Of a stretch of 64,000 bases of DNA, positions 14,842 through 59,348 are shown piece by piece; position 1 is the stretch's first letter; each line of letters starts with the position of its first letter. Made by a program: the position numbers and the translations under genes. The notes beneath the pieces were generated by a model. That model did not search any database and was not told where the DNA came from. It saw only the letters and a list, made by a program, of their open reading frames with translations. Source of the DNA: Candidatus Poribacteria bacterium (GTDB taxonomy: Bacteria; Poribacteria; WGA-4E; WGA-3G); assembly GCA_963665235.2 (NCBI GenBank), contig CAXXLX010000002.1, positions 736,001-800,000 on the forward strand, in the 5' to 3' direction.

Positions 14842-15368
14842 GTGATAGCACCCAACGCCTAAATGCGTGGGCTTCGGTTTCATAGCAACTGCGGTTTACT
14901 CAGAGAGTTTACCGTCTAACGGTCGCTCCACCAGTAGGCGATTCCCCGCAGGTGAAACCCCTTTGGGCACATCAGGTGTAACACAACCCTGGCTATCCCC
15001 GCCTACCTCGTTCAAAACGAACGATATGTTGAGAAGGGGGCAGCAATACAACGTGAGGGGAGGAACAAATGACCTGCGGTCATCCGTTCCTCCCCGTCAG
15101 GATTTCACCTCTGCTACGATACACGCTTTCCGCGCAATTACGCGTTAGCTGCCCAATATACTTTTTAAGTGGTCTAACACTAACACTACACACCTTCTCA
15201 CGGGTGAGGGATAGCACCTGCACTGAGTAGTGTGCAGGGTGAGAATGCTATCCAAAAGTGCCAGTTTAATTATACCACATTTTAGAGAGAAAGTCAAATT
15301 AAAATTTCAACTTATGCGCCGCTACTACATCCCAAACCTAAAGGATTGGGTTTTGTAGCGGGGACTTG
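14842..15368 (-). ncRNA. Non-autonomous IS200/IS605-type element carrying a promoter and a ~420-nt structured RNA (copy 1)
   Basis: Left-end hairpin at ~15319-15362. TTGACT-17-TATAAT promoter at 15297-15269. Right end GAAGCCCACGCATTTAGGCGTTGGGTGCTATCAC. Homologous to 38562-39047 with compensatory changes. Confidence 0.7.
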
Positions 15369-15379
15369 ATAAAGCGGTC

Positions 15380-38411: not shown

Positions 38412-38561
38412 TAATGTATATAACGTGAGCTCGGTGTAAGAAATAAGTTTTGATAAATAGAGAGCTCCTATGTTATAACGCGAAGAGGGCTGGCGCGGAT
38501 ATGCTACCAGCCCTATATCCAAGAAAAAGGCAAAAATGGCTTTCTGCGTTTTACCTCTCCT

Positions 38562-39047
38562 CCGCTACTACATCCCAATCCTTTAGGTTTGGGATGTAGT
38601 AGCGGCGCATGAGTTGAAATTTTAATTTGACTTTTTCTAAAAACTGTGGTATAATTATACTGACACTTTTGGATAGCATTGTCACCCTGCACAAACTCAG
38701 TGCAGGTGCTATCCCTCACCCGTGACAAGGTGTGTAGTGTTAGTGTTAGACCACTTTAAAAGTATATCGGGCAGTTAACGCATAATTGAGCGAAAGCTTG
38801 TATCGTGGCGGGGGTGAAAGTCCGCACGTTGTATTGCTGCCACTCTCTTAAATATCGTTCGGATGATTCTATTTCGAACGAGGCACGCGGGGATAGCCAG
38901 GAACCTTCTGACCTGATATGCCCGGAGGATTTTTCACCTGCGGGGAATCGCGTGCGGGTGGAGCGACAGTTAGACGGTAAACTCTCTGAGTAAACCGCAG
39001 TTGCTACGAAACCGAAGCCCACGCCTTTAGGCGTTGGGTGCTATCAC
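38562..39047 (+). ncRNA. Non-autonomous IS200/IS605-type element carrying a promoter and a ~390-nt structured RNA (copy 2)
   Basis: Hairpin CCGCTACTACATCCCA...TGGGATGTAGTAGCGG. TTGACT(38627)-17-TATAAT(38650). Right end GAAGCCCACGCCTTTAGGCGTTGGGTGCTATCAC. The exact left boundary is uncertain. Confidence 0.7.
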
Positions 39048-40960
39048 AGTTCATCTATAGAGACTTCTACGGTCCCTTTTTCATCGGCGATAAAGTATCG
39101 GTGATCAGGGAACTTTTCTGCAAGCTTCCGTTTTCCGTTTTTTCTATGTTTAGCGTATATATGTGATTTTGCAAAGGGCGCGTTAAATGGATAATGTACT
39201 CGAAGTATGTATTCCTCTTTCACGAAAACAAGTGCTTTTTCCATACTGTTTTCGTCAAGGTATTTTTGAATTGTTACGTCTACCCCATAAGCTTGATATG
39301 ATTTTACTGTTGCCGGCACATTGAAAAGAAAAGCAAATAGAAAAAGACTTATAAGTATTACACACAGTATATTTTGTGCATGTGCGTAAGAGACTATTTT
39401 CTGCCAAGATGTCAGGAGCCGCGTGCTCAATGCAATCCCCCGGCTTGTTAAGAGAATTAGGGCTGGAAACGTTTCATACACGTACCTTGGCCCGAAGGTG
39501 AACTCGTTGAAGAAATAGAAAACCTGTGCCATGAGCAATGCCCCTATCCATCCGACAAGTAGCCATTCCCACTTTTGTTTTTTTCCGAATGTGAGGTAAA
39601 GACAAACAAAAAAGAGCGAAGGCATTGGCCATTCAAACAGATAATAGTTAAGTCCGTTTAGATTGCCATTCACGTATTTCAGTCCTTGTGTGAGCGTGTG
39701 TGATTGCTCCACCCACGGATCTTGGTGAAAGCCTGGGTAGTGTCCTTTACCATGTGCGGCGATATATCCAAAAAGGAGCGGGTCTCCTGTCGTTGCGAAG
39801 TTGTAAGCGAGAAATGCCAACCCCATGACAAGGATAGGGATTGCACCTATAAGGATATGCCGGCGTGACAATTCTTTCCGCATGACAATTGCTGCGATGC
39901 CCATTAGGATACAAATCCATGCAGCTGTATAGGGCCTGCACAGCAGGGCAATGCCTAAAGCCGTCCCGCAGGCCAACGCTGAAAACAGTGGACGTTTATC
40001 TTTAACCACCCGGACGAAACTCAGAAAAGCCACAGTTATGAAAAAGAGGGTTGAACTGTGTGACATGAACTCTGAGGACATGAAGAGAAAAAAGCTGCTT
40101 GCGGTTGCCAACAAAGCAGAAAGTTTTGCGATGTTCTCCTCATAAAGCTCCTTGGCTATCAGATAGATACACACGATTGTCAACGCACCCAATAGTGGAT
40201 TCACAAGCCAAGCAAGACCGAAAAGTACACCGAATGCAAGTACAGCGGGGTATCCTGGCGGGAACTGTGTATACCAGCTGTCGTCAAGAATAACATGTAG
40301 GTTTTCAAAAAATTGCGGTTCTGGAGGTACCGGGGCAGAAAGTGTACCGTGCGCGAACAGGCGCGCTTGAAATAGGTACGCGCAGCCATCTATAGTCCCC
40401 GGCACGCCATCGAAAAGATGCCATGAGATTAAGCCACATATTAACAAAGCACTCGCAAATAATCCGCCTATAAAAGCTCGAGGTGGCATGTCGCGCATCC
40501 ATTGAAAAAGGCGAAAACAGATTGTCCGAATTCGGGATAGTCGCATGCAGAGCAATCCGCGAAAACATAGGGCGATACCGACACCGTTGACAATCATGCT
40601 ATACCCACTGGGTAGAAGTCCGACAGCATTGAAACGTGCGGTGTTAAAGGACGCATGTAGTGGCAACACACAGATAAAAAGCAGGATGCTAAAGACAACA
40701 ACGTGAACCCTCCGTTGACTCAACACTTGGAAGTCCGGTATTATCAAAAGCAGCATGTAAAACAGAAGTCCCCCGGCAATTAGATTGACACCCCAGATTG
40801 GAAAAGAGATTGACAGATACGAAGATTCCTGCCAAGAAATTAGCACTTTGTCATCAAGAATAACAAAGTGCTTTTTTATCCAATATCCAAGGAAAAGGAA
40901 AAAGAGCGCACCGATAAAATAACTCGCTATACGACACAATTGAATGAGTCTGGATTTCAT
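39044..40960 (-). CDS. GT-C fold membrane glycosyltransferase (family 39/ArnT-like)
   Basis: Polytopic protein with DGCAYLFQAR, QFPPGYP and GPRYVYE. Confidence 0.75.
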   Translation of the reverse strand: MKSRLIQLCRIASYFIGALFFLFLGYWIKKHFVILDDKVLISWQESSYLSISFPIWGVNLIAGGLLFYMLLLIIPDFQVLSQRRVHVVVFSILLFICVLPLHASFNTARFNAVGLLPSGYSMIVNGVGIALCFRGLLCMRLSRIRTICFRLFQWMRDMPPRAFIGGLFASALLICGLISWHLFDGVPGTIDGCAYLFQARLFAHGTLSAPVPPEPQFFENLHVILDDSWYTQFPPGYPAVLAFGVLFGLAWLVNPLLGALTIVCIYLIAKELYEENIAKLSALLATASSFFLFMSSEFMSHSSTLFFITVAFLSFVRVVKDKRPLFSALACGTALGIALLCRPYTAAWICILMGIAAIVMRKELSRRHILIGAIPILVMGLAFLAYNFATTGDPLLFGYIAAHGKGHYPGFHQDPWVEQSHTLTQGLKYVNGNLNGLNYYLFEWPMPSLFFVCLYLTFGKKQKWEWLLVGWIGALLMAQVFYFFNEFTFGPRYVYETFPALILLTSRGIALSTRLLTSWQKIVSYAHAQNILCVILISLFLFAFLFNVPATVKSYQAYGVDVTIQKYLDENSMEKALVFVKEEYILRVHYPFNAPFAKSHIYAKHRKNGKRKLAEKFPDHRYFIADEKGTVEVSIDEL

Positions 40961-58097: not shown

Positions 58098-59348
58098 TTA
58101 CCGCCTCTTGGACGGTTTACTTGATATGAGTCCCGAAAACGGTGACCACGAATCAAGTCTACATAGGTTCGGATTATACCTGATACCTACGGGGGATACC
58201 ACCACCCCGACTACAGGGTTAAAAAGGTAACCCTGATACGCTGTGAGAATATTACTCGCACCCACTACATCTCTATGACCATGCCACCCGCATTTGGGGC
58301 ATTTATAGTTGCGTTTGACTGGTTTTTTGCGATTACCGCAACTTGGGCAGGTTTGAGAGGTATAGGCTTCGTTTTGGGTATCAACTTTGATACCAAGTGC
58401 TTTTGCTTTGTAGGTAATCATCTCTCTAAATTGAGAAAATGCCCACTGGTGTAACTTCTCATTGGCTTTTCTACCGTAGTTTATGGATTGTCGGATATGC
58501 TTAATATCACCAATAACAATCGTTTCTATCTTTCGCTTAAAGCAAGAAGAAACAAACCGTGATGTGATTTTGTGTCGCATGTCACGTAACTGCGACGCTA
58601 TTTTGAAAAGGAGTTTGTCTTTGGCGCGCTTGAGTTTTTTCCAACGCCGACTGCCTCGCTTGCATCTTGAGAGTTTACGGTTGAGACTCCCTTTGGACTT
58701 CTCGCGATACCGCACTTTACTGCGGTGTTCGCGTCCGTTGTAGATTTCGGCAGTGATACCGTCGAAAGCTGTGATTGGGTGTATTTCACCCATATCGACT
58801 GCAACGGCTGTCCCGTGTTTTATTTTTGGCTGTTTCGGTTGTGTTTGGTACGTTGCATGGAACTCATACGCTTTTGTTGTTTTGTTGTAGACAAGGGATA
58901 CTTCGGTTGGCACAATCTTATGGAATTTCTTGTCAACCTTGATATAAACAGCTTCGCGTCCTTGACCCATAGACAATCGGAGTCTGCCAAGTTTATAGGT
59001 GATACCCGTCGCACGCCAGGTGAAAGTGTGGAATTTATATGTCCGTTTGGGCGGCTTTGCCTTGGGATTAGATTTTTTATTGCAAAAGAAAGAACGCCTT
59101 GCACCGCAATAGTCGTCTATAACTGCCTGAACAGAATGCGCATGGCAGGGATACCGCTTAAACTTAAGATATTTCTTGAGGCCAGCATCGGACAACCAAA
59201 AACCCTTTTTGTTGTATGTTCTAAACGCAAGTGATACCGTTTTGGAATAGATTCGTCCACCGAGACGATTTATCGCGTCTAATTCCGATGTCGGTTTTGC
59301 TGTCGCTATAATGTAGGTTCGAAACGTTTTGGTATCCTTTTTAGACAT
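58098..59348 (-). CDS. tnpB: RNA-guided endonuclease TnpB
   Basis: AVDMGE (RuvC-I), VIGDI, EAYTSQTCPSCG, CPKCG and HRDVVGASNI (RuvC-III). ATG overlaps the tnpA end. Confidence 0.92.
   Translation of the reverse strand: MSKKDTKTFRTYIIATAKPTSELDAINRLGGRIYSKTVSLAFRTYNKKGFWLSDAGLKKYLKFKRYPCHAHSVQAVIDDYCGARRSFFCNKKSNPKAKPPKRTYKFHTFTWRATGITYKLGRLRLSMGQGREAVYIKVDKKFHKIVPTEVSLVYNKTTKAYEFHATYQTQPKQPKIKHGTAVAVDMGEIHPITAFDGITAEIYNGREHRSKVRYREKSKGSLNRKLSRCKRGSRRWKKLKRAKDKLLFKIASQLRDMRHKITSRFVSSCFKRKIETIVIGDIKHIRQSINYGRKANEKLHQWAFSQFREMITYKAKALGIKVDTQNEAYTSQTCPSCGNRKKPVKRNYKCPKCGWHGHRDVVGASNILTAYQGYLFNPVVGVVVSPVGIRYNPNLCRLDSWSPFSGLISSKPSKRR

Follow-up and report, generated by a model that had tools for sequence, protein, structure and literature searches.

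A gene-less IS200/IS605 element of Poribacteria with a probable TnpB omegaRNA scaffold and two additional folded RNA domains

What does a transposable element encode when it has the ends of an IS200/IS605 insertion sequence (IS) and no open reading frame (ORF)? This question is raised by two diverged copies of such an element in a 64-kb stretch of DNA, referred to here as the window, which corresponds to positions 736001–800000 of contig C2 in a metagenome-assembled genome (MAG) of Candidatus Poribacteria (genome G000; 5.3 Mb, four contigs). Poribacteria are symbionts of sponges. The reading favoured here, with a probability of about two in three, is that of a non-autonomous IS200/IS605 element of the palindrome-associated transposable element (PATE) or stand-alone omegaRNA type, which would make use of TnpA and TnpB in trans. 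This reading is built on the ends of the element, its copy number, its promoter motif, the structure of its RNA and the homology of the three parts of that RNA.

Boundaries, promoter and folded RNA of the two copies

Both copies are intergenic, copy 1 at 14842–15368 on the minus strand and copy 2 at 38555–39047 on the plus strand (the features described below lie on the same strand as their copy), and they align from end to end with a mean column identity of 86%, flanks included. Each is an ORF-less IS200/IS605 element that follows a target site, has a left-end hairpin and a promoter, and closes with TCAC at its right end; the similarity between the two ceases immediately after TCAC (39047 in copy 2, 14842 in copy 1), as does conservation in all aligned copies. 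The TCAC ends are those read in the initial annotation of this DNA, which placed copy 2 at 38562–39047; its right end stands, but its start probably lies seven bases earlier, at 38555, because a TTTAC target site (38550–38554) directly precedes that position. The corresponding site of copy 1, TTTAT (15369–15373), was read in the sequence and aligned with that of copy 2. By analogy with IS200/IS605 biology, TTTAY before the left ends may serve as the transposon-adjacent motif (TAM). The left ends, at 38555–38612 in copy 2 and 15298–15368 in copy 1, were delimited from the sequence and from the alignment of the copies, and the subterminal hairpin with TTTA within its loop that had been described for them is present in both. 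The promoter reported earlier, TTGACT-17-TATAAT with an extended TG before the −10 box, was recovered in both copies (38627–38655 and 15269–15297; 11 of 12 positions), with transcription predicted to start near 38662–38663 in copy 2 and near 15262 in copy 1. This promoter is conserved in the aligned copies and is also found upstream of tnpB genes. No terminator-like site was found on the plus strand after the right end of copy 2. The stop codon of a 638-amino-acid (aa) minus-strand ORF for a membrane protein (39044–40960) falls at 39044–39046, within the right-end bases of copy 2, so the insertion may have set or changed the C-terminus of that protein.

An alignment of 31 non-redundant Poribacteria copies (sequences at least 97% identical were removed, which dropped 5 of 20 new copies) supports an RNA structure of about 385 nt with two pseudoknots, modelled as 112 pairs in 24 helix segments written by column number. 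In this alignment, to which the pairing values below refer unless another set is named, 93.2% of cells are in standard pairs, versus 37.6–44.2% when the partners are slid. Compensatory changes occur in 56 of the 112 pairs; compensatory cells number 390, versus 119 ± 8 in shuffled alignments, none of which (0/500) reached 390, and, as the shuffle control is generous, the argument is carried by the slid controls and by the many independent types of pair. G-U combinations outnumber A-C combinations in the paired columns (222 versus 54), which fits folding of the promoter strand. The large, covarying, pseudoknotted RNA proposed from the two window copies thus holds in a larger alignment. The stem GGATAGCA/TGCTATCC is 100% paired (four of seven pairs covarying), the pseudoknot TTCTCAC/GTGAGAA (columns 17–23 with 68–74) 99.1% paired (covariation in four of seven pairs) and the helix GTAGGCG/CGCCTAC 98.4% paired (three of eight), all as first proposed. 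A further proposed helix, TTGGGCA/TGCCCAA, has to be redrawn: it is only 75.5% paired in the correct register (slide −1), and its 5′ strand pairs better with CTGCCC (97.8%, four of six pairs covarying). Helix P0a, at the 5′ end, is 56.6% paired in the 31-copy alignment, where MAFFT mis-registers the first nucleotides, and is supported instead on alignments of tnpB leaders. The extra 42-nt hairpin noted in copy 1 (15097–15056) is indeed absent from copy 2, and the loop of the TCGTTCG/GAACGA hairpin does vary in length between copies. The impression that there was no credible sense ORF was also correct: no ORF is conserved, and the longest open stretches vary in strand and frame across the 31 copies.

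Searches of the 64-kb window against Rfam 15 gave no match at the gathering score, and those of the two copies at E up to 10 gave only chance-level matches to microRNAs, small nucleolar RNAs and CRISPR repeats, confined to hairpins. The expectation that this RNA lies outside the existing Rfam families (HEARO, the IS605-orfB motifs, group I and II introns, ROOL and GOLLD) was therefore borne out. Three other ORF-less elements and one tnpB element (L060) also yielded no match in Rfam at E up to 1.

Origin of the three parts of the RNA

The 3′ 165 nt of the RNA (38883–39047 in copy 2, 14842–15006 in copy 1) are, to judge from homology and covariation, a TnpB omegaRNA scaffold in complete form, whose homologues are found at the 3′ ends of 368-aa-type tnpB elements. 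The last ~105 nt share 76–89% identity with the right ends downstream of tnpB genes of 369–386 aa in related genomes and 81% with the right end of the 368-aa tnpB of G000; when the sequences are placed side by side, the similarity carries on upstream, past the closing stem (GGCAGGCG/CGCCUGC), as far as the last tnpB codons. The scaffold of copy 2 comprises stem 1, a pseudoknot (38892–38897 with 39040–39045), stems S1b, S3 and S2, and the right-end hairpin (39018–39038), which has a UUUA loop at −22 to −19; in copy 1 the pseudoknot joins 14997–14992 to 14849–14844, next to the TCAC at 14842. The pseudoknot pairs GAUAGC, in the loop of stem 1, with GCUAUC at −8 to −3; its columns (316–320 and 324 with 483–488) are paired in 96.8–100% of cells and include one covarying pair, GC in 26 copies and CG in five (GAUACC/GGUAUC). 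According to the available text on the ISDra2 omegaRNA, nucleotides −5 to −3 of that RNA form a pseudoknot with −103 to −105, with stem 1 around it and a UUUA tetraloop at −20 to −17 (PMC10097598). Because the homology extends through stem 1 and the layout is like that of ISDra2, the conserved unit appears to be a whole scaffold of about 165 nt; the initial annotation correctly recognised an omegaRNA here and underestimated its size, giving a core of ~90 nt. The scaffold abuts the right end, is homologous to tnpB 3′ ends and has the pseudoknot between its 3′ end and stem 1, but it neither overlaps a tnpB ORF nor lies right after one. Given the lack of TnpB similarity and of a conserved ORF, the omegaRNA would be a stand-alone one, and the description of the element as IS605-type without tnpB stands. 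By the rule for omegaRNAs, the flank at 39048–39067 is the putative guide of copy 2.

The first ~95 nt form a leader domain (38660–38756 in copy 2, 15167–15264 in copy 1), recognised by covariation and by its match to a leader model. It is composed of helix A, a pseudoknot strand, hairpin B, the return strand of A, and helix D, which has the second pseudoknot strand in its loop; the pseudoknot joins 38679–38685 to 38722–38728 in copy 2 and 15245–15239 to 15201–15195 in copy 1, and the leader of copy 2 has tandem AGTGT partners with hairpin E. An equivalent fold is present between the promoter and the start codon of the 368-aa tnpB of G000 and in 10 of 11 tnpB loci with an intact ORF in relatives. 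Across 12 tnpB leaders, pairing holds in 95.9% of cells and covariation in 18 of 33 pairs, the values for the pseudoknot being 98.8% and six of seven. With a covariance model derived solely from tnpB leaders, the two window copies are the two best matches in the 64 kb and align over the full length (20.7 bits for copy 2 and 20.4 bits for copy 1; E about 1e-3). The presence of the same fold upstream of tnpB genes, together with these matches to a tnpB-only model, indicates that the leader was inherited from tnpB mRNAs. In G000, the model matches six places; no fewer than five of these immediately precede tnpB genes or fragments, and the sixth is C1:2326948–2327039 (C1, another contig of this genome). 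It has matches in 53 of the 101 Poribacteria genomes searched (48/66 in family f1, 4/18 in family f3), with up to 42 scored copies per genome, and the leader keeps its shape but few nucleotides across tnpB loci.

The leaders of the tnpB genes themselves (G000:C1:331072–331167 and 11 loci of relatives) have a double-pseudoknot fold in which the 3′ strand of the enclosing helix is present twice in tandem. Both tandem partners pair (94.0% and 96.9%) and track changes in the 5′ strand, and the distal partner lies just before the ATG of tnpB, an arrangement that looks like a two-state translational switch.

Between leader and scaffold lies a middle part of ~110–150 nt, delimited by covariation (38769–38880 in copy 2; 15009–15154 in copy 1, including the copy-specific 42-nt hairpin insertion at 15056–15097), which is a three-way-junction domain specific to the ORF-less family. 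It consists of the closing stem M1 (97.8% paired, covariation in four of six pairs), M2, a hairpin with a GAAA tetraloop (M3), and hairpins M4 and N. Pairing in this domain reaches 87–100%, with compensatory changes, in copies that are 68–77% identical to copy 2 (16 MAG records). Neither TnpB protein nor its DNA resembles the middle domain, which in G000 is found in ORF-less copies only. None of the 23 Poribacteria matches to the element motif has a tnpB insertion: 20 are contiguous and full-length, one is cut by the end of a contig, one is truncated and one has an insertion of ~85 nt. A decayed tnpB was considered as the source of the middle domain and rejected, as searches with four TnpB proteins against 16 copies (tblastn, E ≤ 100) gave scattered, non-collinear matches, the best with an E of ~0.5; the first ~25 nt after the leader loosely resemble the start of tnpB. 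The proposal that ~300 nt of additional structure replaces tnpA and tnpB must accordingly be scaled down: 165 nt are omegaRNA scaffold, the first ~95 nt are tnpB leader, and only the ~110–150 nt in the middle are specific to the element. The loop of hairpin M4 (GGUGAAAG, 38813–38820 in copy 2) is complementary to the loop and 3′ strand of an omegaRNA hairpin. This pairing, GGTGAAA../..TTTCACC in the original proposal, held up, with a mean complementary run of 6.9 versus 4.6 in shuffled sequences and one double compensatory change (GGUCAAAG with UUUUGACC, in locus L066), and it is suggestive of a contact between the middle domain and that hairpin.

Copies, partner genes and expression

Four full-length copies are present in G000, the two in the window, C1:2705391–2705813 and C1:185197–185743, together with two rearranged copies, one with a tandem-repeat insertion (C1:892456–893214) and one with an internal deletion (C1:1653625–1653985), and fragments; the flanks differ at every site. 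The left flanks end in TTTAC, TTTAT, TTAC or TTAT, and the right ends in TCAC. The insertion in C1:892456–893214 consists of ~350 nt of an ~18-nt tandem repeat within the omegaRNA region, and a single unit of this repeat is found in the copy with the deletion. Copies C1:185197–185743 and C1:892456–893214 have an insertion of ~35 nt in the promoter region, which recreates a −35 box, TTGACC, at the right spacing from the −10 box. Hairpinned IS200/IS605 ends, the absence of an ORF and several copies at different sites are the features of a PATE or stand-alone omegaRNA, and genes for a Y1 transposase and for TnpB are present elsewhere in the genome.

The left end and promoter of the window copies (query positions 1–92) recur at 12 further places in G000 with 86–87% identity, followed at 10 of the 12 by a tnpB ORF of 400–401 aa, and also occur, with ~80% identity, on two elements of this genome that have both tnpA and tnpB. 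In copies 1 and 2, the left end comes from one IS lineage and the right end from a different one. The left-end hairpin of copies 3 to 6 is not that of copies 1 and 2 but the type found in relatives on tnpB elements of the 368-aa kind, which indicates that ends have been exchanged between lineages.

Relatives with full-length copies, at 68–77% identity, are other genomes of the same family. Matches of any kind were found in 24 of 36 genomes of family f1 versus none of 24 genomes of three sister families. The exact element motif has 25 matches in public genomes, 23 of them in MAGs of Candidatus or uncultured Poribacteria; the other two, in Planctomycetota, have neither the right-end motif nor element sequence around them and were judged to be chance matches.

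A profile search of G000 returned 19 right-end/omegaRNA loci, three of which adjoin an intact tnpB and one a truncated tnpB, the remaining 15 having no adjoining tnpB homology. A shorter ORF-less family (C1:851224–851602, C1:494630–495009, C1:1263182–1263557 and C1:102438–102774; right end ...TATGAC) has the same type of leader, an omegaRNA-type right end, and a smaller and different middle part. The constants of this family and of the window family are the promoter, the leader and the scaffold, the middle part being family-specific. Two other ORF-less IS605-type elements, C1:2373670–2374300 on the minus strand and C1:1424900–1425476 on the plus strand, have an omegaRNA-type scaffold end and an interior of ~300 nt of their own; these interiors resemble each other and differ from those of the window copies, and neither element gave a match in Rfam at E up to 1.

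As for the proteins that such elements would require, both types of tnpB in G000 match the Pfam domains OrfB_IS605 and Cas12f1-like_TNB, and a 134-aa tnpA matches Y1_Tnp. An intact tnpB of the 368-aa type is present in four of the five other RNA-carrying genomes examined and once in G000. The latter locus (C1:331000–332366) keeps its promoter, leader, RuvC D-E-D motifs and right end; as it has only ~30 nt between a TTTAC and the −35 box, it appears to lack the left-end hairpin, which may have left the gene unable to move. The window itself has a distant TnpB-like coding region on the minus strand (58239–59105), with 26–31% identity to two query TnpBs in tblastn searches.

Evidence on expression comes from a comparison of four sets of contigs from RNA libraries, in which contigs hold no information on start, strand or level and uncovered parts are uninformative. 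Sponge metatranscriptome libraries yielded contigs over relatives of the middle domain and, with much greater depth, over those of the right end; one contig of 865 nt starts ~81 nt before the position equivalent to 38750, near the predicted start, and ends 486 nt past the right end. None of the RNA sequencing runs holds more than 0.07 of the sampled words. These contigs give a weak hint that relatives of the element may be expressed.

Competing explanations and comparison with known systems

How such an element would work can be proposed from the published biology of IS200/IS605 elements and TnpB, as set out in the available text of two sources, to which all steps beyond encoding are owed (PMC10055086, PMC10691335). 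The sigma-70-type promoter inside the left end would drive synthesis of a non-coding RNA of ~385–420 nt running through the right end into the flank, and the flank after TCAC would act as the guide. TnpA supplied in trans would excise the element, a TnpB of the 368-aa type encoded elsewhere would load the RNA and cut the vacated donor site (TTTAY plus flank), and recombinational repair from the sister chromosome would restore the element, leading to its retention. The leader is a carry-over from the tnpB mRNA, and the closing stem M1 may package the middle part and bring leader and scaffold together. As to the role of the 5′ domains, the favoured proposal is that the middle domain stabilises or insulates a guide RNA that now has neither an ORF nor a TnpB in cis. 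The idea of a trans-acting guide RNA with added domains, one of two offered in the initial annotation, fits these results, the 3′ part being an omegaRNA accompanied by leader and middle domain; the other, a ribozyme-like cargo, does not, as nothing supports a ribozyme and the presence of an omegaRNA scaffold and a tnpB leader leaves no unrelated cargo.

Several observations weigh against the non-autonomous, trans-acting element. Because many of the 31 copies share ancestry, the shuffle control makes covariation look more significant than it is, and fold-energy z-scores (−2.19 for sense and −3.41 for antisense) do not discriminate between the strands. The only close tnpB of the 368-aa type in G000 (C1:331168–332271) seems to lack a left-end hairpin, and its right end is only 81% identical to that of the element, so that this TnpB is only a putative cognate partner; in another genome, G035, the closest tnpB has an in-frame TGA. 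The RNA-library contigs are possibly derived from DNA and are therefore no proof of transcription. The loop–loop contact depends on a single double compensatory event and partly overlaps a stem. Finally, according to the available text of the ISDra2 study, the last 116 nt of that omegaRNA suffice, and the RNA 5′ of the scaffold is dispensable and disordered by cryo-electron microscopy (PMC10097598); an omegaRNA model thus leaves ~210 nt of selected additional structure unexplained.

This extension could, possibly though against the odds, be an RNA machine of a new type, in which a two-state leader and a domain docking onto the omegaRNA would respond to an input (free TnpB, a metabolite or co-transcriptional folding, for instance) and control the maturation, stability or loading of the guide. 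The double-pseudoknot leader would then also gate translation of the expanded tnpB family of Poribacteria. If this were true, gene-less elements could gain the upper hand over the guides of elements that bear tnpB, and one transposon would be acting as a hyperparasite of another.

It is doubtful that the element is an inert relic, a decaying deletion derivative of a tnpB insertion sequence with merely inherited structure, even though both flanking modules come from tnpB elements and rearranged or truncated copies exist (C1:892456–893214, C1:1653625–1653985 and the fragments). The middle domain has no counterpart in tnpB elements and is nevertheless 87–100% paired with compensatory changes, such pair-preserving double changes are not expected under neutral decay, and promoter, ends and pseudoknots are intact in the full-length copies.

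A regulatory decoy, in which leader and scaffold would titrate TnpB or a factor acting on the leader and so tune TnpB activity or tnpB translation across IS copies, is improbable. The leader is a module that lies beside the start codon of tnpB, with conserved, covarying, switch-like tandem partners (94.0%, 96.9%), and 15 of the 19 right-end/omegaRNA loci of G000 have no adjoining tnpB homology, as might suit a decoy; but binding of anything by the leader is an assumption, the scaffold retains all the features of a working omegaRNA, including the pseudoknot to its last nucleotides, and a decoy does not need intact transposon ends at many sites.

HDV-like ribozymes (named after the hepatitis delta virus) have a nested double pseudoknot, a short P3/L3, a P1.1 and a catalytic C. 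The leader has a nested pseudoknot, but the helix at the P3 position is 7 bp long and helix D encloses the 3′ pseudoknot strand in its loop. Self-processing 5′ domains, in which the leader or the three-way junction would trim the transcript and free a mature omegaRNA, are highly improbable: the two helical stacks and pseudoknot of the leader are loosely like those of small self-cleaving ribozymes, and a GAAA tetraloop and a long-range loop contact, as in the middle domain, are common in large folded RNAs, but Rfam gave no ribozyme or intron match at E up to 10, the leader conserves its shape and few nucleotides, unlike catalytic cores, cleavage of the leader in tnpB mRNAs would sever only the promoter-proximal end, and the other ORF-less families of this genome have different middle parts.

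The stretch AATTGCGCGGAAAGCG is somewhat reminiscent of the P4 element of group I introns. An element of the IStron kind, in which a group I intron with IS605 ends splices itself out, is hardly credible. IStrons and their PATEs also have structured RNA between IS605 ends, with ORF-less derivatives on record in the available text (10.1101/2023.11.20.567912), but the element has no group I intron signature, Rfam gave no match to a group I or II intron for it at E up to 10, the two window copies lie between genes, the element's own internal promoter means that it is not spliced out of a host mRNA, and its 3′ part is a TnpB omegaRNA scaffold.

Read as a non-autonomous element that borrows TnpA and TnpB, the element may represent a natural case of a guide RNA freed from an overlapping ORF, in which the promoter and the tnpB leader have been kept and a conserved folded domain has been gained. 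In G000, right-end/omegaRNA loci without an adjoining tnpB are in the majority, at about 15 against 4 that have a tnpB and this type of right end. This raises questions about the limits on the supply and stability of TnpB guide RNAs, about gene-less parasitism of TnpB, and about the job of the pseudoknot leader of tnpB, and natural extensions that stabilise an omegaRNA could be of interest to those engineering TnpB editors.

Mobilised omegaRNAs that stand alone and act in trans were already published in 2021, according to the available text of a PNAS paper that cites the OMEGA paper of that year and calls their role unknown (PMC10691335), and PATEs often encode omegaRNAs, according to the available portion of a second source (PMC10055086). 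To speak of an undescribed mobile non-coding RNA was, in the light of both sources, an overstatement. The literature searched, supplements aside and some sources in part, holds no description of a three-way-junction domain or of retention of the tnpB leader in such elements, nor of a pseudoknot leader with a duplicated 3′ partner, and no literature on TnpB in Poribacteria was found, supplements again aside. Elements with only an omegaRNA are thus known, whereas the additional RNA domains appear to be undescribed. Like stand-alone omegaRNAs and PATEs, the element has IS200/IS605 ends, no protein gene, multiple copies in a genome that also encodes TnpB and TnpA, a scaffold at the right end and a putative guide in the flank; unlike them, as far as the available descriptions go (PMC10691335, PMC10055086), it is ~385 nt long and has a strong promoter of its own, a tnpB leader and a covarying middle domain. 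In layout, its pseudoknot between the loop of stem 1 and the nucleotides before the guide is that of the ISDra2 omegaRNA as presented in the available text, as are the UUUA-loop right-end hairpin ~20 nt from the end and a variable, dispensable-looking middle hairpin, but the scaffold of ISDra2 overlaps the tnpB ORF, whereas here the 5′ extension is structured and conserved and contains no ORF. A further comparison is with the IS1341-type (tnpB-only) and IS605-type elements of the same genome: the window copies share the left end, promoter and target motif of the 400-aa tnpB copies and the right end and leader type of the 368-aa tnpB, and differ from these elements in the absence of tnpB, in place of which they carry the middle RNA domain.

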